Virus record (IMG/VR): IMGVR_UViG_3300021062_000015
Location: 1-61,979 of that record
Strand: one strand, 5' to 3'
Source of the DNA: a virus
Lineage: Duplodnaviria; Caudoviricetes
Length of the DNA stretch: 61,979 nucleotides
Shown here piece after piece: positions 808 through 30,060 of the stretch. The notes under the pieces were generated by a model that saw nothing but the letters and a program-made list of their open reading frames with translations, did not search any database and had not been told where the DNA came from. The first letter of the stretch is position 1, and every line of letters begins with the position of its first letter. Made by a program: the position numbers and the translations under genes.

Positions 808-1878
808 TCACCCCAACGCCTCAATATCCTCATCGGCAGGTTCCAAATGTCCGTAGTTATTTTGCACAACCTCCACCTTGTCTCCCATCCATTGGGCGAC
901 CTTGTAGATGGACTTTCCAGCGGACACCAGGATCGAGGCGAAGCTTCGTCTCATCGTATGGGGAGTCACCCAGCCGAACCCTTGGGCTTTCATATAATCC
1001 ATAAACGGCCGTCGGAAATCATAGCGATAACGCCACCTTCGGTGCTTCAGGTCGGCATAAAGCGCAAAATCCAGCGGATCCAAGCCTTTCAGATAGTCCT
1101 TCAGAAAGCGTCGAAAAGAGCCCGTCAGAGGGATCGCTCTTTCCTCCCTGTCTTTAATCTTAAACTCCCGTTCCCCCTCACGAATGCGGTGCTTATCGGC
1201 TTTCCTCACATGCAGGATACCTTCCTCCAGATCGAACCAATCGCGCCTGGCTTCCACAATCTCTTCGCGCCGAAGCCCAGCGTCGAAGCCGCAGAATAGA
1301 ATAAAGCGCATCTCATCATTGGGAGCGTTCTCGATCAACTTCTTCTTATCCTTGCGTCTCACCCAAGGTTTTTTCGAGATACGGTTCGTTTTGGAAAGTT
1401 TTACCTTAGCTACAGGGTTTTCGATTCTCACTCGTTTGACTTCCACGGCCCAGCGGAAAAAAGAGCGTAGCGTCATCAAATACCCTTGGATCGTGTCTTC
1501 TGTGAGGAACTTAGGATCATCCTCAGAATACTTTTTCACCTTCTTCCGGAGGTAAGCGTAGTAAGCGGAAATCTGATCTCTCGAGACATTAGCTGTCGTT
1601 GATCGAGAGGGCAGCCAGGTGCAGAAAGCCAGGAGCGTCTTTTCCTTAGCGTTGCGAGAGTTGGGGGAGTAGCGGTTCTCGCGCACTTGGTAGGCCAGGA
1701 ACTCCTGCACATCATCCTTAATCGTCCGTTCCGACTGAACCAGGGGGTTAATCCTCACCTCCATCAACCGCTTCACGGCGACCGAAGCATCCCTAGTCTG
1801 CAAATTCACCCAAACTCGTTTCCCATCCTCCATTTTAGAAAAGTAGTACCCATTGCGGCGGAGGTAGAGATTCTTCAT
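808..1878 (-). CDS. int: Tyrosine integrase
   Basis: Catalytic motifs GLRREE (R), HTMRRSF (HxxR), NNYGH (Y); N-terminal arm-binding-like segment; adjacent to attP. Confidence 0.95.
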   Translation of the reverse strand: MKNLYLRRNGYYFSKMEDGKRVWVNLQTRDASVAVKRLMEVRINPLVQSERTIKDDVQEFLAYQVRENRYSPNSRNAKEKTLLAFCTWLPSRSTTANVSRDQISAYYAYLRKKVKKYSEDDPKFLTEDTIQGYLMTLRSFFRWAVEVKRVRIENPVAKVKLSKTNRISKKPWVRRKDKKKLIENAPNDEMRFILFCGFDAGLRREEIVEARRDWFDLEEGILHVRKADKHRIREGEREFKIKDREERAIPLTGSFRRFLKDYLKGLDPLDFALYADLKHRRWRYRYDFRRPFMDYMKAQGFGWVTPHTMRRSFASILVSAGKSIYKVAQWMGDKVEVVQNNYGHLEPADEDIEALG

Positions 1879-2100: not shown

Positions 2101-5100
2101 TTACCACAAGCCAATTGCTGTGGCACTATCCTGATACGTCTTGTCCAGTTCTCGCAACTTCGGAAGCAGGCTCGGCACCCTTCGACTGATCCATTCCTCA
2201 AAGTCTCCTTGGGAGATTTCCTTTGCCATTCCTCCCACCTTGATAGGTTGGCGCCCTTTCACGCTGGATCGTAGCTGTCGGATTGCCTTTTGCTCGTCAC
2301 CAGAAGCTTCAATGAATTCAGCTTTGATGTTCATCGCTTCGTCTACGTCCCCAATCAATAAGGCTTCCTGCATGCGATCATAGTAGGGCGAATTTGGCGT
2401 TCGGGGATACTTCCCACCAACTGGAGGTAGATCCTCTCCCAATTCCTTCGCCCATCGATTGCCGGCACGTCGGATTTCAGCCACATCCTTTTTAGCCGCA
2501 TGGATCTTAGCCGCCTTCCATTCCCCAACCAATTGCTCGGAATAGGGCCCAGCGTTCTCTTTAAGGAGAGATGTCACGTAGTTGTAGTTCGGATACTCTC
2601 CCAGAACAAAGTCATTCAGATCCCTCATTGTCAGGCGTTCTTGCTGCCACCCACGCATGATCAAGTTGTTCCAGATATTGACGAAAGGCCCGATGCTTGG
2701 GGGATCAAGAGGACTCTTCGCTCTCCCTCGAGAGACTACACTCTCCATATTCGAAGCCCAGTCGCCGATGATTCCGAACCCTCCCGCATAGACAGCATCG
2801 TGAAATAGGCGTTGCAGTATCAGTGAGACTCCTCGAAGTTCGTTCTCGTTATAGGTATTCGAGATTTCTTCAAAAGAGGCATCCAGCCGGTTCTTCCCAA
2901 AAAGCCTTTCTCTCAGCCAGTAAAGGCTGAAGCCTGTTCCGGCCGTAAAGGCCAGCCACAGGAGCAATGGGCGATAGTCTCTGACCTTTTTGCCATCGAC
3001 TTCATACCCGACGATAGCAGGCTTTAGGATGTCCACTTCAACCCTTCGAAGCATCTGGATCCCGAACTTCTGGAACTGAAACAAAAACTTCGCTGCAGGG
3101 TTTTCCATCCACAGCGGGACCTGTCGCATGTCATAACCAAATTGAGTCACATTCGCAGCGGCCCGCATCAACTTCTTCCCCTCATTCCCCGAGAGCCCTT
3201 GTTTTTTAAGCTTCTCCAAGTCGATGCCATATTTCTTCAGCTTGGCTTGAAAGATTAACGATTCTTGGCTCTTGGGATTCGCCTCCACCTTCTTCATTCC
3301 CCACCTTGCCCAATTGAGTCCTGCCGCCGCCGCCGTCGATCGCGTGAACTTTTCCACCATGGAGAACCCACCGAGCTTAAGCGATACAGAAGCAATCTTT
3401 TGCTGTAATTCCGTGAAATCACTCATCTCCGCCATGCCAGCAAGCAAATCGGATCGGAGCACACCAGCCTCTTCAGCATCACGGATTTGCTTGCCGTATT
3501 GATGCAGCGAGGCCAATCCAGGCAAGGCGTTCGACAACCCGAACTCTGGAATAGTGTTTACGAAAATCGTTGAGGCATTTCGCATCGATGTCCAAATATT
3601 CCCCAGCTTCGACGCTGTCGTATAGGTTCGGAGCCATGCCATCGTATCGTAGAACCATCCTAACTTTCGCTTCTCGTAGATCGTGTCTCGGATATGAGCC
3701 ACATAAAGTTGAGTATTTCTGCTCAGATTCCCCTCAATCGCCTTCTGGAAAGCGTCCTTGTCATTCCCGATGGCCTGCCCAAAAGCTTTGATCTGAGAGA
3801 TACGTTTTGCCCAGGAAGCGATGAAATAGGGGACAACCTCCTCAAATCCTCTCTCATAGAACCAGTCTGGGAGCTTACCCAATCGGGCCATTTCCAAGTT
3901 CGCAAAGAACTTGTTCTCAACTTCAAGAGTGAGATTTTGCTGGATGAAGAGCTTTAATTTCTCAGCATCTTCAATCCCTGTCTCCTCTCGAAGGATCTCA
4001 ATGGCTTCCAGGTAAAGCTTCGGATTTGAATCTGGATCTTCCAAAGCCTCGCGTACATCTCTTCGTAAGATTCTCGGCCAATAAGCATCTCCAAAGTCTC
4101 CAATTGGGCGCCATCCACCTTTCGCTCTCGGATCGATCACATGGACGTTGAGTTGTTTATTTACCTTCCCCGTCCACACAAACATCTTCTTCACCGCGTC
4201 GACAAACTTCTTTCCGCCATCACTCATTTTGGCGTATAAGGCATCGGCTTCAGCTTGGATCTCTGGAGTCCTACCGCTTTCGCGGATCTTCATGTACTCC
4301 TCAAACTCTTTGGAAGCCACCTTCAGATCTGCTTTCTTGAGACTTCGAACGATGTCATTAAATGGCTTCGAGAGTCGCCCAACGAGATCGGCATTCAGAT
4401 CATAGTACTCATCAATCTTATCAGCCAGAGACGAAAGCCTTCCGCCTGCTTTCCGCAAAGTATCCGTCGTGGATTTGTAAATAAGCCCGCCATTCCGCAA
4501 TCGCTGCCACGCGCTGGGGATCATCTCTCCCCGAAGCTTCTTTCTTAATTCTTCAGCCGCCAGAGTCGCTTCTTTGCCGAGAAAGGCTCCGGCTTTCGCT
4601 TGTTTTTCCACTGCAGGAGTGGACTCCGTTTCCCTCGTGAAAAGTGTCTGTCCTTCTCCAAGCACACTCTCCTTCATGGCGGGAGTGATGTCGATCGAGT
4701 GAGCCTTAAACGTCCCCACCTCTTCCTCCTCACCATTCATAACATCTTCTTCTTGGACTGCTGCAATTTCCAGGCCTCCAACCTTCGCCCCCCACTTCTT
4801 CCCATACTTCGCCATGAACTGAGGAAGGATTTGATCATAAAATCCCTTCATGCCAACGCCCCCGATTTTTAATCCTTCGCCTTCGAAAACCTCAGTTCCA
4901 CCAGCGGGAATATTCTTAGATTTCTCAGCCAGATCTTTTCCGACATACTCACTTAGTTTTTCAATAGGAACTTCCTGGGCTACCTGGGTTTGTTCATTTG
5001 CATAAGCACGATTAGGGAGTAACGCTTTTACGTTGTATAATTCCTTGTCATCATTAATGACTTTCTGGATTAGCAACTTATCAACTTGCTTACTCAAATC

Positions 5101-8100
5101 ATACCTTGCCGCCTGCTGTTCTCCCGTAGTCCAGGCAACTTTGTCGTAGCTGGGAACGTATTTGATTGACTGGCTTTTACCACCATTTAAAATAGCGTCA
5201 TGCTTATTCAAATACTCTGCCAGCAATGCGGAGCTAGGTTCAGAACCTTTATGTGTCAAATCGACAAGAACGCTGGGAGATTTTGTTCTGTTAGATGTAG
5301 ACAGATTTCCCCCATCACCAGAGAGAAGATCGCCCGCTCTAAGAGGGGAGGTAAGCCACACAACTTCTCTCGGTTTAATATCCGATGTCTTCAATGTGGG
5401 AAGGAGTTCCTTATTTGTCCCTGCCACAAGGGACGCCGTAAGTGCTGTTCTAAGGCTTGTTCCAACCTTTTTAAGCGCATTCCTAATCCCAAGCGATATC
5501 GTCGTTCTACTATCGGCGGGGAGCGACTGGATGACCACGTTCGGATTGCTTACCAACTTCTTGGTAGAGATCGAGTTCGAGGCAAGAGCGTTCATCACAT
5601 TAACGGGCAAATTCATGACAACAGCATCTCGAACCTGCTCGTAATTCATGAGCGGAAGCATAGAGATCTCCACCGGAGACAGGACGCCGCCGGACGGATC
5701 TTCACTCCCAAAGAAATTCTGCACCATTTCCCGAACGCTCTCTGGCTTGGTGATGTTATTCCAATCGCTACTACCTGACTCCGCAGCCCAACGCAGCATT
5801 CGCTTCATCACGAGCTCATGCCAGGTTTTCTTGAATGGAGCGTCGGAAACCCGTCCTTCCTCTTTGAGAGCATATTTTAAATCTCGCAGTTCAATCAATT
5901 TGTCGGCCATCGAAGAATGTTCATCAGGCAACCCGTTCTTGCTCGGACTCGCTTCAATGGCAGCCTTTAACCATTTAGGCGCATCCTGCGTCTCTTTTTC
6001 TAAGAGTTCAATGCGTGACGGATCGACCTTGTATCCCTCCTTCTTCCCTTTCTGATGCCAATCACTCTGCACCTCTTCAACGAAGAGCACTTTCTTTCCA
6101 TCGGAGTCCGTCCGCTCATTGAATCGCACATGAGCAAGAACATTTGGCTCATCGAAGTGTGAAGATTGGAAATTCTCAGTTGTCGAAAAATGTCCACGCT
6201 TTGCCTGAATATAGGCGCGTGATGCAGCTCCGTGGTTTTCCCAATCTTCCCAAGCTTCCTCTTTACTGAGATTGTAATTCAGTTTGGCCCATTCAGGGAA
6301 ACTATCGAAATCCTCATGAGCGCGGACGGGCAACGTAAACAACAACTCTCGATAGTTCTGTCCTCCTGGAAGTTGGTATTGAGAGAATTTTGTTTCCCCA
6401 GCAACGCTGCCTATGAATGAAACATCACGTTCAGTTAAGCCCAATCCAACCCTCAAAGCTTTAAGACGAGAATCCGCTTCATGATGGCCGATTTGACCAC
6501 CACGGTCTCTCAAATTAAGAATCTTTTCCTCTTCTGCTTTATACTTTTCGATTGCAGATTTCTTTTCTGGAGAGAAAGTCGTGCCCTTCACCACCTCCTC
6601 CACCTTCACCTCGTTCTGCTGCAGAAAATCCAATACCTCTTGCTTTGTTACCTTCTCTTTCCCCTGCAGAAAATCTTGGAGTCCTACCCATTTGATCTCC
6701 TCAGTCTTCACTCCATTCTGAGGGTTCATCACGATTCCCATGATCTGGCCCGCTGAAGCTGCATTCGGCATCTTCTTCTCAATCACTCTTTGAAGTTGAG
6801 AGAAAAATGGAGGAGCGATTGCAGGTTCTGTTTCCCGTGTCCAAAACATCCCGTTCTCAGGAGACTCCAAAAACTTCTTCAATTCTCCTTCAGGATTGGA
6901 AAGGATCACATCAATGGGAACTGTATGCCCATCATAGGTCTTTCTAAAATTTCCTCCATGCGCGTCGACGGCCAAGACGTTGTCTTTAGGTCGATAAAAC
7001 TTATTGAGATCAACTTGCTGAAAACCGAACTTCTTAAGGAAATCGGAGATCTCCGATTTTGAAGGATCCGTCCCCAGAATCAAAGGTTGAGAAATGACGA
7101 TATGGACATCGCCATTCGAATCTTCGATTAGCCCCTCAAACCCTACATCTTGGTTAAAAACTTTATTAAAGAGATTCCAGCGGGCAATATATTCAAGAGG
7201 TGTCGCATCCTCTAAGACAATCTCTCCATTTTTCAGGAAAGGAGTTGCTCCATACATGGAGCCTTGGGTGACTTTAAAAACTAAGCCCGTTTTTTGGTCG
7301 AGGTAGACGTCATGCTCACGACCACTGTCAACAAGAGGGTTACGGCTGATCAGCTCGTCGTAACGGAACTCTTCTTGTAACCGGACCAGGTCTTGTAAGG
7401 CATTTCGCTCAATTTCCGCTGCCTCACCCCGGTCCCCGGCCTTGAGATATACTTGGCGTACTCCTCGAACTCCTCGGAGGTGAACTTCGGCGGATTTAAG
7501 GAGATCCTTTTTAGATCTTCGAGTGTCGTCGTTACGGCGGCTTTCATTGGACTCTCCTAAGTTACCATCGGTTGTGTCTCTTGTAAAGAGCTCGCCCTGA
7601 CTTCCAGGGTCTTTAAATAGGTCTCGGGTATTGTCCCCACCTTTCTTTCCACTCTCTTTGGATTTTTCAAATTCCTGCTGAGCCTGAAGCTTTCGCAAGG
7701 ATTCCATGGATGGCTTGGGAACTTCGAAAAGAGGTTTTCCTTCCGTCTCACGCGTCTGGAGAGCAGGCACTCCTTCTAGGGCCGATTCAATATCCTGAAC
7801 CGTTCGCTTTAGGATCTCTCCCATCACGCCTTGGTCAACTTGGCGAGCGATCTGTCGGAGTCTGAATAGAGATTCTCTTACCCAATCCACGATCTTATTG
7901 AGGATAGCCAGCCAGCGAGTATCTGTGGTGAGATTATCCGCTCGGAGTTGGACGAATTGGCGGGCAAGTTCTGCCGCCATCACGATCACATCTCTTGGCT
8001 TTTTATCCAGATGCTCGATTAGAGCTTCATATGTCGTAATGCTCGAGGGTTGAGACAAGTCTTTATTCCCTTGGTAGAGATTCCAGGAATCGACCATTGC

Positions 8101-11100
8101 TTGCTCGATTGACTCGGCCTTAGTGATTTCTCCACGGCTTCGGTATTCAGACGCAAGATCCCGAATCTCACCAACGAGATCACCTAAATCTTTTCGAACG
8201 TAAGCGTCAAACGATCCTTTGCCAGACGTCTTCCATCGATCTCGTAAAATCGAAAGATGAACAGCATGAATCAGTTCTTCTTGGAATTGATCGCGGATGA
8301 GGGTGGTGCCAGCCTCTTCATTTCCCTTCGCTTCGGCATCCCGCAAGACTCGGGCAGGATCGTATTTGACGACTATTGTGCCGTCTGCCAGAAAATGCGC
8401 TCTGGGCAATTCCCCGTCGGAGGTTTCAAGTACTTCGGATCCGAAGGCTCGAAGGGCATCCCGTAAGCTAGATGTACTGCGTGATCGCTGTAAAGCGAGG
8501 CGTAATCCACGTCCCCCTCCGTCGGACGAGCGAAGCTGAAGATCCTGCCTTCCTTCTCGATTCTCTTGAGAAGTTCCTGTTTCCTGATCTCCTCGATGCT
8601 GTCCTCCAGTCGATTCATCGGTGGAAACATAAGCCTTCTTCACCTCTTCGTCAATACGGCGTCTTTCGCCTATTCCTTTTTTCTTCTTCGGCTTGGCAGG
8701 AAGAGCCTTTTCCAAAGCATCAGCCATGGAGACTAACTTCGGCTTGGACTCTTCTTCCTTTCGGAGCTTATCGAGCTTGGCCAAGTACTCCGCTTGCCCC
8801 ACCGTTCCCTTCGGAATCTTCACCCCATTTTGCTTCAGGAGAGCGATTCCCGTATCCGTCAGCACGGGTTCGCCATTCGGTCCCGTTTCCAAGAAACCCG
8901 CTTTAGCCAGTCGTGCCTTCGATTCCTTCGTCGGCTGTCCACCTTTGAGCACAGCTTCGAGATTGATGAAATCAGACTTGGTTTGAGCTTCTTCGGTTTG
9001 TTGGGCCAGTTGCTCTTCAGCGGAAACTTGTTTCGGCACCAACATCTCCAAAGCTTCTGAGATCTTCTGGCGCAGAGGTTCGGGCCAGGTGATCTTCACC
9101 ATCTGGTCAGGATTGATGGCGTTAGGCACTTCGATGGATCCTCCCGCAGCCAATTGTCGAATCGCTTGCAGATCCACTTCGCTTCCCGTCCCGAGATTTT
9201 CCCAGGCTTGGGCGAGTTCTTGTGTTGCCGCTGCAACCTCGGGCGTGATCTCAAAATTGTCAGAGGCTTGTCCAGGGAGATGGGAAACAGCTTCCGAAGG
9301 CTCAGGCAACGCTCCAGGGATCGTTACTCCAGTCCCTTGCACTCCGTTGATATCAACATCATGGCCCTGGAGTTCTTCAACCGGAGCTTGCGGTTGGGTG
9401 CTCGGAAGTTCAGGAGGCAACTGAACAGAGGAAACCGGAGTCGTCAGAGCTTCCCACGCAGTTTTCCAATCGCCTTTCTGCAGAGCCAACATGGCTCGCA
9501 TCTCCAGAGTCTTAGATTGCTGTCGGTCCTTGCGATAGTCAGAGTTCTTCCAGTCTTCCTTAAAATCTTCGATAAAATTAGTCAGCCCTTCCTTGATTTG
9601 CTTCGCGCTCTCAGGAGCATTCGCAAGGGCCGAGGCACCTACTGCCGGTCCCACCGCCATCATTTCTTGCACCGCATTGGCCACCCGTTCCCGAGAGGTC
9701 ATGTTCTCAGCCAAGAAATCATACGTCGCTTGAGGCAGTCCTTCTCGCGTCGCACCACTAGCAACATCCATAGCCCCGTGTGCAAGCTTTTGGGAGAGAG
9801 AAGCCCCCTTCGTCGCCTTGATGGTATTGGCCGCATTTTTCACAAGCCCCATGGCTGTTACCGTGGCAATCGGTCCAAAAGGATCAGTTGCGCCACCCAT
9901 CCATCCGGCGCCTGCAGCTTCCTTCACAGAATCAGGAGTACGGTTTAGAAGTTCGGCAAGATCTCCATGGCCAGAAGCTGAGAGAGCCATTAAGAGTTCT
10001 GGAGTTTGGAGGAGGTCAGAGGCGAGTTGCCCCGTCTTTCGCGCTCGATCTTCATCCTCACGTCGGAGTCGATATTGGTAGTTTGGTGTCGAAATATTCT
10101 CGATCAACTTCGCAAGAGCTTCCGCATCGCCAGAGCGGATTCTCTTCACCAAAGCCTGATTATCTGGATGTTCGATGGAATGAATGTCCTGTTTGAGATC
10201 CAGCCCCTTCCACTTCGTTCCATATCGTTCACGGTCAATCGTCGAGCTATAAATCTGTTCTTCTCGGGTCCGTCCAGCAAGCTGCAGTCGAGCGGCCGCT
10301 TTCTTCATCTTCTCTTCGTCCCCATCAGCCATCGCTTCCGCATACTCCGTCGCTGCGGATTCAATCACTTCTTTGGCCTTACTGCGGTTAAGAAGGAGAT
10401 TTTCCTTCACCGTCTGCCCGCTATTTCGCAAAGCTTCTTGCAATCGCAATGCCGCCAGTTCTTCAGTCGAAAGATCTTCAACCTTCTTTTTCCCAGCCAC
10501 ATCAAAAACATCTTTGGAAAGTCCGAGAGCTTGTAAGCCGAGAGAAGAGATTCCCCCAAGCATGGAAGCACCAAGGCCGGCAACCGATCCTGCAGTTTGT
10601 TCGGCAACCCCCTTCTTCTCTTTGGGATCCACGAACATATCTTTCGCAGCTGTTCCCACGTCCTTAGCCACATTTTTCCACCATTCCACATCCGTCGGGC
10701 GTAGCTTCACCGTCTTCACCGCTTCACGGATCTTTACGGGATCCACTTGGGTTGGCTGTTCTTCAAATCGAGATTTAAACTGCGCGATTGCTTGGGGGGT
10801 AAATTCAAAGCCATTCGGCAACTGCACCCCGAGCTTCTTCATCGCAACCCGCGCTGTTGCTGGGAGGATGGCGCCAGTCTCAACCCCATCGAGAACCTCA
10901 AAAGGCTTTGGAACGAACTCCAAATCTTCCTTCTTCTTGGGCTCAAAGCGGGCCAAGAAATCTTTATCCAATTCAAGATCGGAAGGCACTTCCGGTAAGG
11001 AAGCTTCAGCCTCCAATTCTTCAACCTTCGGCACCACCACCCGATTCGAATTCAAATCATTTTGCGCCACATATTTGCCAGCAGGGCCAGCCACCTTGAC

Positions 11101-11304
11101 ATCAGGAGCATCTTCGAAGTCATCCCAGTTGAATTCACGCTTAGCCACAACTTGGCTATTGGCTATTGGCTGATTGGCGATTTGAGTAGGAGGTTCATAA
11201 TCCGGGAAATCATCCCAGTTAAACGACTTTGCTTTCGGTGCCGATGGAGAGACTACAGATTCAGGCGCGTCCTCAAAATCATCCCAATTGAACGTAGGAG
11301 GCAT
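2101..11304 (-). CDS. Giant polyvalent / internal virion (ejected) protein, 3067 aa
   Basis: Last late gene; FNWDDF repeats; EELIHAVH peptidase-like motif; polyvalent-protein kinase-like domain (~6880-7340); HFDEPNVLAHVR...EEVQSDWHQ domain typical of phage large polyvalent proteins. Confidence 0.85.
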   Translation of the reverse strand: MPPTFNWDDFEDAPESVVSPSAPKAKSFNWDDFPDYEPPTQIANQPIANSQVVAKREFNWDDFEDAPDVKVAGPAGKYVAQNDLNSNRVVVPKVEELEAEASLPEVPSDLELDKDFLARFEPKKKEDLEFVPKPFEVLDGVETGAILPATARVAMKKLGVQLPNGFEFTPQAIAQFKSRFEEQPTQVDPVKIREAVKTVKLRPTDVEWWKNVAKDVGTAAKDMFVDPKEKKGVAEQTAGSVAGLGASMLGGISSLGLQALGLSKDVFDVAGKKKVEDLSTEELAALRLQEALRNSGQTVKENLLLNRSKAKEVIESAATEYAEAMADGDEEKMKKAAARLQLAGRTREEQIYSSTIDRERYGTKWKGLDLKQDIHSIEHPDNQALVKRIRSGDAEALAKLIENISTPNYQYRLRREDEDRARKTGQLASDLLQTPELLMALSASGHGDLAELLNRTPDSVKEAAGAGWMGGATDPFGPIATVTAMGLVKNAANTIKATKGASLSQKLAHGAMDVASGATREGLPQATYDFLAENMTSRERVANAVQEMMAVGPAVGASALANAPESAKQIKEGLTNFIEDFKEDWKNSDYRKDRQQSKTLEMRAMLALQKGDWKTAWEALTTPVSSVQLPPELPSTQPQAPVEELQGHDVDINGVQGTGVTIPGALPEPSEAVSHLPGQASDNFEITPEVAAATQELAQAWENLGTGSEVDLQAIRQLAAGGSIEVPNAINPDQMVKITWPEPLRQKISEALEMLVPKQVSAEEQLAQQTEEAQTKSDFINLEAVLKGGQPTKESKARLAKAGFLETGPNGEPVLTDTGIALLKQNGVKIPKGTVGQAEYLAKLDKLRKEEESKPKLVSMADALEKALPAKPKKKKGIGERRRIDEEVKKAYVSTDESTGGQHRGDQETGTSQENREGRQDLQLRSSDGGGRGLRLALQRSRSTSSLRDALRAFGSEVLETSDGELPRAHFLADGTIVVKYDPARVLRDAEAKGNEEAGTTLIRDQFQEELIHAVHLSILRDRWKTSGKGSFDAYVRKDLGDLVGEIRDLASEYRSRGEITKAESIEQAMVDSWNLYQGNKDLSQPSSITTYEALIEHLDKKPRDVIVMAAELARQFVQLRADNLTTDTRWLAILNKIVDWVRESLFRLRQIARQVDQGVMGEILKRTVQDIESALEGVPALQTRETEGKPLFEVPKPSMESLRKLQAQQEFEKSKESGKKGGDNTRDLFKDPGSQGELFTRDTTDGNLGESNESRRNDDTRRSKKDLLKSAEVHLRGVRGVRQVYLKAGDRGEAAEIERNALQDLVRLQEEFRYDELISRNPLVDSGREHDVYLDQKTGLVFKVTQGSMYGATPFLKNGEIVLEDATPLEYIARWNLFNKVFNQDVGFEGLIEDSNGDVHIVISQPLILGTDPSKSEISDFLKKFGFQQVDLNKFYRPKDNVLAVDAHGGNFRKTYDGHTVPIDVILSNPEGELKKFLESPENGMFWTRETEPAIAPPFFSQLQRVIEKKMPNAASAGQIMGIVMNPQNGVKTEEIKWVGLQDFLQGKEKVTKQEVLDFLQQNEVKVEEVVKGTTFSPEKKSAIEKYKAEEEKILNLRDRGGQIGHHEADSRLKALRVGLGLTERDVSFIGSVAGETKFSQYQLPGGQNYRELLFTLPVRAHEDFDSFPEWAKLNYNLSKEEAWEDWENHGAASRAYIQAKRGHFSTTENFQSSHFDEPNVLAHVRFNERTDSDGKKVLFVEEVQSDWHQKGKKEGYKVDPSRIELLEKETQDAPKWLKAAIEASPSKNGLPDEHSSMADKLIELRDLKYALKEEGRVSDAPFKKTWHELVMKRMLRWAAESGSSDWNNITKPESVREMVQNFFGSEDPSGGVLSPVEISMLPLMNYEQVRDAVVMNLPVNVMNALASNSISTKKLVSNPNVVIQSLPADSRTTISLGIRNALKKVGTSLRTALTASLVAGTNKELLPTLKTSDIKPREVVWLTSPLRAGDLLSGDGGNLSTSNRTKSPSVLVDLTHKGSEPSSALLAEYLNKHDAILNGGKSQSIKYVPSYDKVAWTTGEQQAARYDLSKQVDKLLIQKVINDDKELYNVKALLPNRAYANEQTQVAQEVPIEKLSEYVGKDLAEKSKNIPAGGTEVFEGEGLKIGGVGMKGFYDQILPQFMAKYGKKWGAKVGGLEIAAVQEEDVMNGEEEEVGTFKAHSIDITPAMKESVLGEGQTLFTRETESTPAVEKQAKAGAFLGKEATLAAEELRKKLRGEMIPSAWQRLRNGGLIYKSTTDTLRKAGGRLSSLADKIDEYYDLNADLVGRLSKPFNDIVRSLKKADLKVASKEFEEYMKIRESGRTPEIQAEADALYAKMSDGGKKFVDAVKKMFVWTGKVNKQLNVHVIDPRAKGGWRPIGDFGDAYWPRILRRDVREALEDPDSNPKLYLEAIEILREETGIEDAEKLKLFIQQNLTLEVENKFFANLEMARLGKLPDWFYERGFEEVVPYFIASWAKRISQIKAFGQAIGNDKDAFQKAIEGNLSRNTQLYVAHIRDTIYEKRKLGWFYDTMAWLRTYTTASKLGNIWTSMRNASTIFVNTIPEFGLSNALPGLASLHQYGKQIRDAEEAGVLRSDLLAGMAEMSDFTELQQKIASVSLKLGGFSMVEKFTRSTAAAAGLNWARWGMKKVEANPKSQESLIFQAKLKKYGIDLEKLKKQGLSGNEGKKLMRAAANVTQFGYDMRQVPLWMENPAAKFLFQFQKFGIQMLRRVEVDILKPAIVGYEVDGKKVRDYRPLLLWLAFTAGTGFSLYWLRERLFGKNRLDASFEEISNTYNENELRGVSLILQRLFHDAVYAGGFGIIGDWASNMESVVSRGRAKSPLDPPSIGPFVNIWNNLIMRGWQQERLTMRDLNDFVLGEYPNYNYVTSLLKENAGPYSEQLVGEWKAAKIHAAKKDVAEIRRAGNRWAKELGEDLPPVGGKYPRTPNSPYYDRMQEALLIGDVDEAMNIKAEFIEASGDEQKAIRQLRSSVKGRQPIKVGGMAKEISQGDFEEWISRRVPSLLPKLRELDKTYQDSATAIGLW
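5166..5193 (+). promoter_or_regulatory. sigma70-type promoter for the nested HNH gene (leaderless)
   Basis: TTGACT-16-TAAAAT with the ATG at 5200, 6 nt after the -10. Confidence 0.65.
5200..5778 (+). CDS. HNH homing endonuclease nested antisense inside the giant gene
   Basis: CxxC zinc fingers (CLQCGKEF...CSKAC) followed by the HNH core DHVRIAYQLLGR...VHHINGQIHDNSISNL...H. Confidence 0.85.
   Translation: MLIQILCQQCGARFRTFMCQIDKNAGRFCSVRCRQISPITREKIARSKRGGKPHNFSRFNIRCLQCGKEFLICPCHKGRRKCCSKACSNLFKRIPNPKRYRRSTIGGERLDDHVRIAYQLLGRDRVRGKSVHHINGQIHDNSISNLLVIHERKHRDLHRRQDAAGRIFTPKEILHHFPNALWLGDVIPIATT
7350..7547 (-). CDS. Nested +1-frame small protein (65 aa) at the front of the kinase domain
   Basis: Own promoter; AGGAGAG 4 nt before the ATG; helical protein-like sequence PKFTSEEFEEYAKYISR. 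Confidence 0.6.
   Translation of the reverse strand: MKAAVTTTLEDLKRISLNPPKFTSEEFEEYAKYISRPGTGVRQRKLSEMPYKTWSGYKKSSVTTS
7559..7587 (-). promoter_or_regulatory. Internal sigma70-type promoter
   Basis: TTTACA-17-TAACTT with extended -10 TG. Confidence 0.6.
8373..8618 (-). CDS. Nested +1-frame small protein (81 aa) at the front of the peptidase-like domain
   Basis: ATG 7 nt after a -10 box; MNRLEDSIEEIRKQELLKRIEKEG amphipathic helix. Confidence 0.6.
   Translation of the reverse strand: MNRLEDSIEEIRKQELLKRIEKEGRIFSFARPTEGDVDYASLYSDHAVHLAYGMPFEPSDPKYLKPPTGNCPERIFWQTAQ
8626..8654 (-). promoter_or_regulatory. Internal sigma70-type promoter (leaderless)
   Basis: TTGACG-17-TATGTT. Confidence 0.65.
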
Positions 11305-29814: not shown

Positions 29815-30060
29815 CTACACTCTTTCCATTTCCTTCACTTGAGCTACGAGTTCTTCATAAGTCTTCTTTGGAGTCGTAAATTCCCCTTCCAAATAACTGC
29901 CATTGCGTTCCGCTCTCCTCTTTAGTCTGAGCCTGTTACGTTTATAGATATTAAGCACTCGTTGATATTCTTGATTGGTTGCGGGAGCCGGATTTGCACC
30001 GACGATCTTCTCCTTATGAGGGAGACGGATTGCTCCTTTCCTATCCCGCGTCAAAATCAC
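29815..30060 (-). CDS. Hypothetical protein
   Basis: GTGA-coupled to the portal stop. Confidence 0.55.
   Translation of the reverse strand: MILTRDRKGAIRLPHKEKIVGANPAPATNQEYQRVLNIYKRNRLRLKRRAERNGSYLEGEFTTPKKTYEELVAQVKEMERV

Follow-up and report, generated by a model that had tools for sequence, protein, structure and literature searches.

A giant gene in the phage sequence analysed here contains a segment of 208 codons that carries, on the opposite strand and in codon alignment with its host, a gene for an HNH endonuclease. We think it likely that this segment is a self-contained antisense HNH cassette that sits inside an unbroken host frame and spreads by homing. The window, by which we mean the whole stretch of DNA analysed, is a complete IMG/VR virus record of 61,979 bases (IMGVR_UViG_3300021062_000015). 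An initial annotation of this DNA had described an antisense HNH gene embedded in the giant gene, made up of little more than a promoter and a leaderless 192-residue reading frame in register with the host, and every element that it listed is present in the sequence (Table 1).

An antisense HNH gene in the frame of a polyvalent-protein gene

The insert consists almost exactly of a promoter (TTGACT-16-TAAAAT) and a 192-codon zinc-finger/HNH_3 gene. The first position of the HNH gene lies 5200 − 2101 = 3099 = 3 × 1033 nucleotides from the lower edge of the host gene, and the two genes therefore share triplets. In this register the opposite strand can hide a complete gene, its stop codon included, because TAA, TAG and TGA are read backwards as Leu, Leu and Ser. 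The host would thus read the stop of such an element as Leu or Ser, and only the element's own TTA, CTA or TCA codons could stop the host frame. The initial annotation had estimated about 14 Leu and about 10 Ser codons in the HNH gene and had seen none of these three among them; the exact counts are 14 and 10, and none is stop-making. Since the element keeps the register, avoids TTA, CTA and TCA and has a length that is a multiple of three, the host gene is neither split nor shifted. Across the insert the host protein reads ...KRMLRWAAESG-SSDWNN...KYVPS-YDKVAWTTGEQQ, and the host-frame translation of the insert includes the peptide EQVRDAVVMNLPVNVMN. The VHHING motif of the HNH protein becomes PVNVMN in the host frame, and the invariant His in an alignment of the sense segment is the HNH ATG read backwards. 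The boundary of the insert is uncertain by about 6 nucleotides because the HNH stop TGA (5776-5778) doubles as the host Ser of 'ESG'.

The giant host gene encodes a phage polyvalent protein. Pfam Kinase-PolyVal matches residues 1303-1468 of the product (E 2.5e-13), and residues 1640-2260 are matched by 2451 of 8000 scored candidates (E ≤ 1e-3), many of which carry Pfam domains of polyvalent proteins (ART-PolyVal, LPD, MuF_C, RadC and similar domains). The Kinase-PolyVal domain and the thousands of giant relatives with polyvalent-protein domains are the grounds for this assignment. When the host domain was compared with the PDB using Foldseek, nothing significant was found (best E 0.094).

The antisense product matches HNH families in PHROG (best E 3.1e-10) and, at residues 113-153, Pfam HNH_3 (PF13392; E 6.8e-4). 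HNH_3 is matched by all ten members of an alignment of the HNH frames (A2; best E 8.5e-11), and the eight cysteines of the two zinc ribbons are invariant in it, as are H113, H132, H133, N141, N145, H154 and H158; zf-FCS matches two of the ten members. A sequence search of the PDB with A2 returned a weak eL24-like zinc ribbon as its sole match (E 0.001). AlphaFold2 modelled the HNH frame with a mean predicted local distance difference test score (pLDDT) of 83.3, from only 10 sequences. The HNH family is very large: a profile search of 1.84 billion representatives yielded 52,759 proteins at E ≤ 1e-3, and 40 of them are left when the threshold is set to 1e-30.

Table 1. Coordinates of the host gene, the insert and the parts of the HNH cassette in the window
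Feature	Position	Strand	Description
Giant host gene	2101-11304	−	single open frame, 3067 codons
Insert, read through in the host frame	5149-5772	−	624 nucleotides = 208 codons; host residues ~1845-2052
−35-like hexamer TTGACT	5166-5171	+	partly conserved in relatives
−10 hexamer TAAAAT	5188-5193	+	16 nucleotides after TTGACT; ends 6 nucleotides before the ATG
HNH endonuclease gene	5200-5778	+	192 codons and TGA; codon-aligned with the host frame
Two Cys4 zinc-ribbon modules	5218-5462	+	C7, C10, C29, C33 and C63, C66, C83, C87
HNH core	5536-5673	+	residues 113-158: DDH...VHHINGQIHDNSISNL...HERKHRDLH
Junction	5773-5778		last HNH codon and stop TGA = host Gly and Ser of 'AAESG'

Insert-free homologues, insertion sites and the loop

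The initial annotation took the two flanks of the insert to be normally contiguous in this family, and homologues bear this out. The homologue from the Dolichospermum phage Dfl-JY45 has two internal copies of the region, and nothing separates the flanks in either (...RWAAANG...VAWATGEQ and ...FAVDQGFDQVAWISG). In an alignment of the host domain (A3), the window and loci L012, L017 and L018 carry a block of 208-220 residues between Gly and Tyr or Phe, and this block is missing from all six insert-free IMG/VR loci aligned (L002-L007). Of 600 candidate stretches in an A3-based scan, 578 were confirmed as relatives; the best 80 loci were examined, and an HNH gene is absent from the window's site in all of them. 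A homing endonuclease gene is expected to be present in some homologous host genes and missing from others at the same site, and this is the pattern seen here. At one of the 80 loci, L126, which has no insert at this site, a clade-2-like HNH gene (see below) lies on the opposite strand at 496-1074, about 430 nucleotides upstream of the matched domain.

The segment is carried in frame by 18 homologous proteins examined (P0005 and seventeen others), at the window's site (site A) in 12, at site B (after AWTTGxQQxxRY) in three and at site C (after EEVQSDWGQ) in three. At the DNA level, a locus search with an alignment of the sense segment (A1) gathered 13 non-redundant loci, and a search of genome contigs gave one locus, L025, near-identical to L023. 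The elements occupy sites A (window, L012, L017, L018), B (L014, L016, L019), C (L011) and D (L013) of one host domain, and those of L015, L023/L025 and L024 lie in other host domains. Sites A-C abut the most conserved motifs of the host. In the protein database, the insert region alone found only itself, and an A1-based search at lengths of 428-2000 residues found three proteins.

Homing endonucleases within genes normally ride in introns or inteins, and the cassette might likewise be removed by an RNA or protein splicing of a kind not yet described, which would leave a mature protein without the 208 residues. The insert does begin with Ser, a possible nucleophile. A group I or II intron was rejected, as Rfam gave no match at E ≤ 10 on either strand of 4600-6400 and the sense RNA of the insert folds no better than its shuffles (z-score −1.25). 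An intein was rejected on sequence: the sense translation of the insert has no Hint domain and no Pfam match at E ≤ 0.01, and the insert ends ...VPS followed by Tyr, with neither a C-terminal His-Asn nor a Cys, Ser or Thr at +1. In the site-A relatives the last residue of the insert is Gly, and the residue after it is Tyr, Phe or Ala. All of these results agree with the initial annotation, which had noticed neither a sign of splicing nor an intein-type ending. Although the searches are limited to known families, RNA splicing would select neither for register, nor for a length divisible by three, nor for the avoidance of stops, and every embedded copy has all three. We therefore regard removal by splicing as improbable and retain the cassette that is read through by its host.

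The host domain with its insert was modelled with AlphaFold2 from an alignment of 56 rows (A4), only 4 of which span the insert. The model has a mean pLDDT of 78.2 and a predicted template modelling score of 0.70, with flanks at 88-97. The insert forms model residues 213-420, between a helix (196-210) and a strand (423-426). It is mostly helical, with pLDDT at 57-73 at its start, 72-92 over residues 251-330 (nucleotides ~5419-5658, minus strand) and 34-43 over residues 361-390. The loop is thus predicted to join two secondary-structure elements within a well-folded domain, and it does not come out as simply disordered.

The hosts with an element at site B (L014, L016, L019; P0020, P0026, P0098) are without about 80-100 residues between 'RY' and 'GxGMxGFYD', a stretch that corresponds to a beta-rich subdomain in the window's model (residues ~436-515). 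Their HNH cassette replaces this stretch, after a short 'WGHEVIAPAV'-like piece; either the stretch was deleted at insertion or the subdomain was never present.

Selection against host-frame stops and the embedded lineages

An open host frame is a common property of the elements. No stop interrupts it across the insert in any of the 13 loci, and in 10 it reaches both ends of the locus. Of the three antisense frames, the codon-aligned one is the longest at each of the 13 loci (128-267 codons). A complete zinc-finger/HNH gene is found in 12 of the 13, and the remaining locus, L022, which is cut by the end of its contig, keeps the HNH core and the C-terminus. Among the 169 Leu and 172 Ser codons of the 12 elements, not one is TTA, CTA or TCA.

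We compared these elements with free-standing relatives through a scan based on the HNH alignment A2, which does not presuppose an open host frame, and analysed the best 80 of 224 relatives. At 17 of the 80 loci the HNH gene is embedded: it has no stop-making codon and lies within an antisense codon-aligned frame 667-2196 codons long; two of the other 63 also have none, and 61 have 1-12. In the matched stretches, stop-making codons account for 160 of 753 Leu and Ser codons at 54 distinct free-standing loci and for 0 of 347 at the 17 embedded loci, a class that requires zero of them by definition (Fisher P 1.4e-29). The difference persists when the free-standing set is restricted to the 30 loci with a guanine-cytosine (GC) content of at least 0.45 (56 of 412 versus 0 of 347, P 2.4e-16). 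A classification by flanks only was added to avoid the circularity of this definition. By that measure 25 of the 80 loci have antisense frames of at least 200 codons on both sides. Seventeen of these score as continuous through the HNH gene, and L103, scored as broken only through an edge offset, is the eighteenth; at the other seven (six distinct), a free-standing HNH gene seems to lie between two ordinary genes. The comparison with free-standing relatives that the initial annotation had proposed is thus strongly positive, and these counts show selection against host-frame stops in embedded HNH genes. At L048, L059 and L065/L066, a free-standing HNH gene is flanked by two opposite-strand open reading frames (ORFs) of 295-602 codons in a common frame, which may be plain neighbours or the parts of a gene interrupted by an antisense HNH gene.

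To place the embedded genes in their family we used an HNH tree of 64 rows, which comprise 54 of the 80 scan loci and 10 of the 12 elements; L011 and L013, which share contigs with L026 and L029, were for that reason kept out. The 26 scan rows left out are mostly matches shorter than about 85 residues, together with L066, L069, L088 and L105, which duplicate retained rows exactly or nearly so, and three longer matches (L092, L096, L102) for which no reason is recorded. The window's clade (clade 1) comprises 12 rows, 11 of which form a core with a support of 98 in the Shimodaira-Hasegawa-like approximate likelihood ratio test (SH-aLRT), and a second clade, in which HNH is combined with a helix-turn-helix, contains 15 embedded rows and one free-standing row. 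The embedded state requires three changes on the tree, compared to a mean of 21 for shuffled labels, and none of 500 shuffles is as low. The embedded habit is therefore inherited, which suggests specialised embedded HNH lineages. Within clade 1, sites A, B and D are intermixed; as expected of a mobile gene, the phylogeny of the elements does not follow their insertion sites, suggesting that the element moves between sites. Polyvalent-protein domains were matched in the hosts of 10 of the 15 embedded loci scanned (RadC, ART-PolyVal, DUF7178, MuF_C, LPD1, 2H ligase, InPase, ddrB-ParB and helicase). The embedded members of the second clade (L023/L025, L024, L031, L035, L038, L044, L046, L050, L053, L064, L070, L073, L080, L099 and L103) have C-terminal helix-turn-helix-like tails and are located in other domains of polyvalent proteins.

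Expression signals of the cassette are also shared within the clade. The window's HNH ATG has no Shine-Dalgarno sequence before it. TTGACT-16-TAAAAT is the sole sigma-70-like site found in 4900-6100, and because shuffles yield 1.1 such sites, the promoter of the window alone is not significant. A TAnnnT hexamer stands exactly 6 nucleotides before the start in 11 of the 12 clade-1 elements (window, L011, L013-L019, L027 and L028); L012, at 64% GC, is without it, and the −35 box is less regular across the clade. With a −10 box 6 nucleotides upstream of the start and no Shine-Dalgarno sequence, the arrangement fits a leaderless HNH mRNA that would start at the ATG. Some second-clade elements have Shine-Dalgarno-like sequences in place of a −10 box at this distance. 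A terminator-like hairpin with a T run lies inside the host gene at 5977-6003 (plus strand), about 200 nucleotides downstream of the HNH stop; the region has 3 terminator-like sites, compared to 1.2 expected from shuffles.

Selection on the two overlapping frames was compared in nine clade-1 elements. The ratio of nonsynonymous to synonymous substitution rates (dN/dS) ranges from 0.19 to 0.60 in the HNH frame and from 0.51 to 1.07 in the host frame and is lower in the HNH frame in all 36 pairs. Because dS is greater than 1 for most pairs and such estimates are biased where frames overlap, these ratios give the direction of the difference and not its magnitude. In 30 of the 36 pairs the HNH frame has the higher amino-acid identity, in five it has the lower, and one pair is tied. 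The comparison shows stronger purifying selection on the HNH frame than on the host frame. This asymmetry speaks against the view that the 208-residue sense segment is the domain with a true function and that codon usage gave rise to the antisense ORF as a by-product, as do the HNH_3 matches in all ten antisense translations (best E 8.5e-11), whose metal ligands are invariant while the sense translation matches nothing, and the conserved −10 box before the antisense start. That view could draw on the in-frame presence of the segment in 18 homologous proteins, on the helices that AlphaFold2 predicts at pLDDT 72-92 for model residues 251-330, and on the fact that antisense codon-aligned frames are often open in the giant gene (264 codons at 9154-9948, for example). 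The segment, however, shifts its position within and between host domains, and we give this explanation hardly any credence. The initial annotation had itself considered that the segment might prove to be a conserved sense-strand domain. Indeed, it recurs in frame, yet it behaves as a mobile antisense cassette, because it occupies different sites and domains, is found at the window's site in none of the 80 best host-domain loci, has an intact HNH gene on its other strand in every DNA copy examined and has the lower dN/dS in the HNH frame throughout.

A mobile cassette may still come to serve its phage, and we considered whether the HNH gene has been domesticated to exclude competitors, to help package DNA or to control the giant gene in antisense. 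The sporadic distribution, with no HNH gene at the site in the 80 best host-domain loci, the mixture of several insertion sites in one HNH clade and the placement of sites A-C against the most conserved host motifs, as homing targets would be, all make this unlikely. It would be compatible with the purifying selection on the HNH frame, with the fact that no close insert-free allele of the phage was found and with the non-homing roles that phage HNH proteins can have, for instance as terminase partners (PMC11855218).

Proposed mechanism, known systems and the surroundings of the cassette

Under the reading that we prefer, that of a homing cassette in an unbroken frame, the host gene would most likely be translated straight through to give a protein with a 208-residue loop, and neither RNA nor protein splicing would be needed. 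The HNH gene would have an antisense transcript of its own, and the protein made from it would cut insert-free alleles in co-infecting relatives, where repair would copy the cassette in. What we infer is that the loop is translated and kept in the mature protein, that the HNH gene is transcribed, and when, and that its product cleaves and homes.

Besides the saturation of synonymous sites and the restriction of the splicing searches to known families, several points weigh against this reading. Transcription, translation and cleavage rest on inference from sequence. The listed homologues have at most 53% identity over partial alignments, the IMG/VR loci have 29-40%, and because no close insert-free relative was found, recent mobility of the window's copy is not demonstrable. 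With 19.7 bits, this copy falls short of the curated HNH_3 cut-off of 24.8. A Foldseek comparison of the HNH model with PDB structures yielded nothing at E ≤ 0.001; the best E was 0.17, and I-HmuI ranked 23rd (E 2). For the window alone, the probability of finding no host-frame stop is 0.038 under the host gene's own codon usage; this single case is marginal, so the comparative data carry the weight. For the 12 elements the corresponding probabilities, each under the codon usage of its own host, range from 2e-6 to 0.79, and their summed log10 P of −20.2 is overstated in counting related elements as independent, though synonymous sites are saturated. Finally, most pairs have a dN/dS below 1 in the host frame, and part of the loop is predicted with confidence to be helical, so the loop may be more than passenger sequence.

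In a stronger form of this last point, the antisense loop, which polyvalent proteins would repeatedly gain in this way, would be a module of about 200 residues that is folded, mostly helical and itself selected, and the stretch would be dual-coding. We consider this possible but doubtful. If true, antisense homing endonucleases would be both a recurrent source of new protein domains and a specialised class of mobile elements free of splicing. In either case, some 200 antisense-derived residues in conserved domains amount to a natural experiment in the tolerance of insertions and perhaps in how new domains arise, and an antisense promoter within a giant gene raises questions of convergent transcription and of the timing of expression.

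The phage HNH homing endonucleases that are free-standing or intron-borne, such as I-HmuI and the products of the T4 mob genes, are small, have expression signals of their own and target conserved genes; their genes lie between other genes or in self-splicing group I introns. To our knowledge, none of the genes of this type has been described as read through by a host gene. The HNH gene of the window resembles them in its family, its small size, its own signals and a presumed target in a conserved gene, but differs in having a host frame that apparently reads through it.

A 'hidden HNH endonuclease', represented by the ShiLan domain and by Pacc40 gp60, has been described in DNA methylase genes of actinobacteriophages (Arsenault, Gosselin, Gogarten 2025, PMC11855218). 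As far as the text of that paper goes, the likeness is close: a zinc-finger and HNH gene of about 195 residues lies in a phage ORF whose host frame remains stop-free, with no detectable intron or intein and with a disjunct distribution, and its authors predict a loop retained in the protein and propose leaderless initiation (PMC11855218). The ShiLan HNH gene, however, uses an alternative frame of the same strand in a DNA methylase host, whereas that of the window is on the opposite strand, codon-aligned and in a polyvalent host. Also unlike ShiLan, the elements described here have their own promoter, occupy several sites and belong to two HNH clades. The terms antisense, reverse, opposite strand, complement and polyvalent do not occur in the text of the ShiLan paper, whose tables or repository may list opposite-strand cases (PMC11855218).

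Two other systems share single features with the cassette. Antisense homing-endonuclease genes occur in group I introns of nuclear ribosomal DNA (PMC9548176); these too are on the opposite strand, but in a self-splicing intron of a ribosomal RNA gene, with no host frame to keep. In a cyanobacterial dnaX intein, an out-of-frame LAGLIDADG '+2ORF' has a frame-specific dN/dS, with the endonuclease frame under purifying selection (bioRxiv 10.64898/2026.09.14.751524). Its frames overlap as they do here, but the segment is removed by protein splicing, and the word 'antisense' does not occur in the accessible part of that preprint. The literature searched describes no homing endonuclease gene nested antisense in a read-through protein-coding ORF. 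As far as these searches reach, what is new is an antisense, codon-aligned and self-promoted HNH gene in polyvalent proteins, and what is already in print is the same-strand hidden HNH gene. The initial annotation had suggested that homing endonucleases have another means of residing within a gene; for the antisense codon-aligned form this stands, but it has a same-strand precedent in ShiLan from 2025 (PMC11855218). This would be a further way for such an endonuclease to persist inside an essential gene, one for which register, a promoter of its own and the avoidance of three codons suffice, with neither a ribozyme nor an intein.

Elements of this kind account for 17 of the best 80 IMG/VR relatives of the window's HNH gene. 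Because gene callers are not known to report ORFs nested backwards in a larger ORF, nested antisense elements are probably missed systematically.

The giant gene contains other long antisense ORFs. Two on the plus strand, at 9154-9948 (264 codons) and 10006-10536 (176 codons), are codon-aligned with it, and none of these ORFs has a Pfam match. Since these two are open over such lengths, the antisense register tends to be open in this gene, which calls for caution with chance estimates from a single locus. As the sole query against IMG/VR, P0001 gave just two partial N-terminal matches (L009 and L010), and a megablast search of positions 1-25000 against the phage collection found no near-identical phages. 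Four neighbouring genes upstream of the giant gene had no match in PHROG. Directly downstream of it, at 808-1878 (minus strand), is a gene like those for tyrosine integrases (phrog_1, E 2.5e-39), and because of this gene the phage is probably temperate. Across the whole window, the only gathering-level Rfam match is a single tRNA gene at 29979-30050 on the minus strand (RF00005, 52.4 bits).

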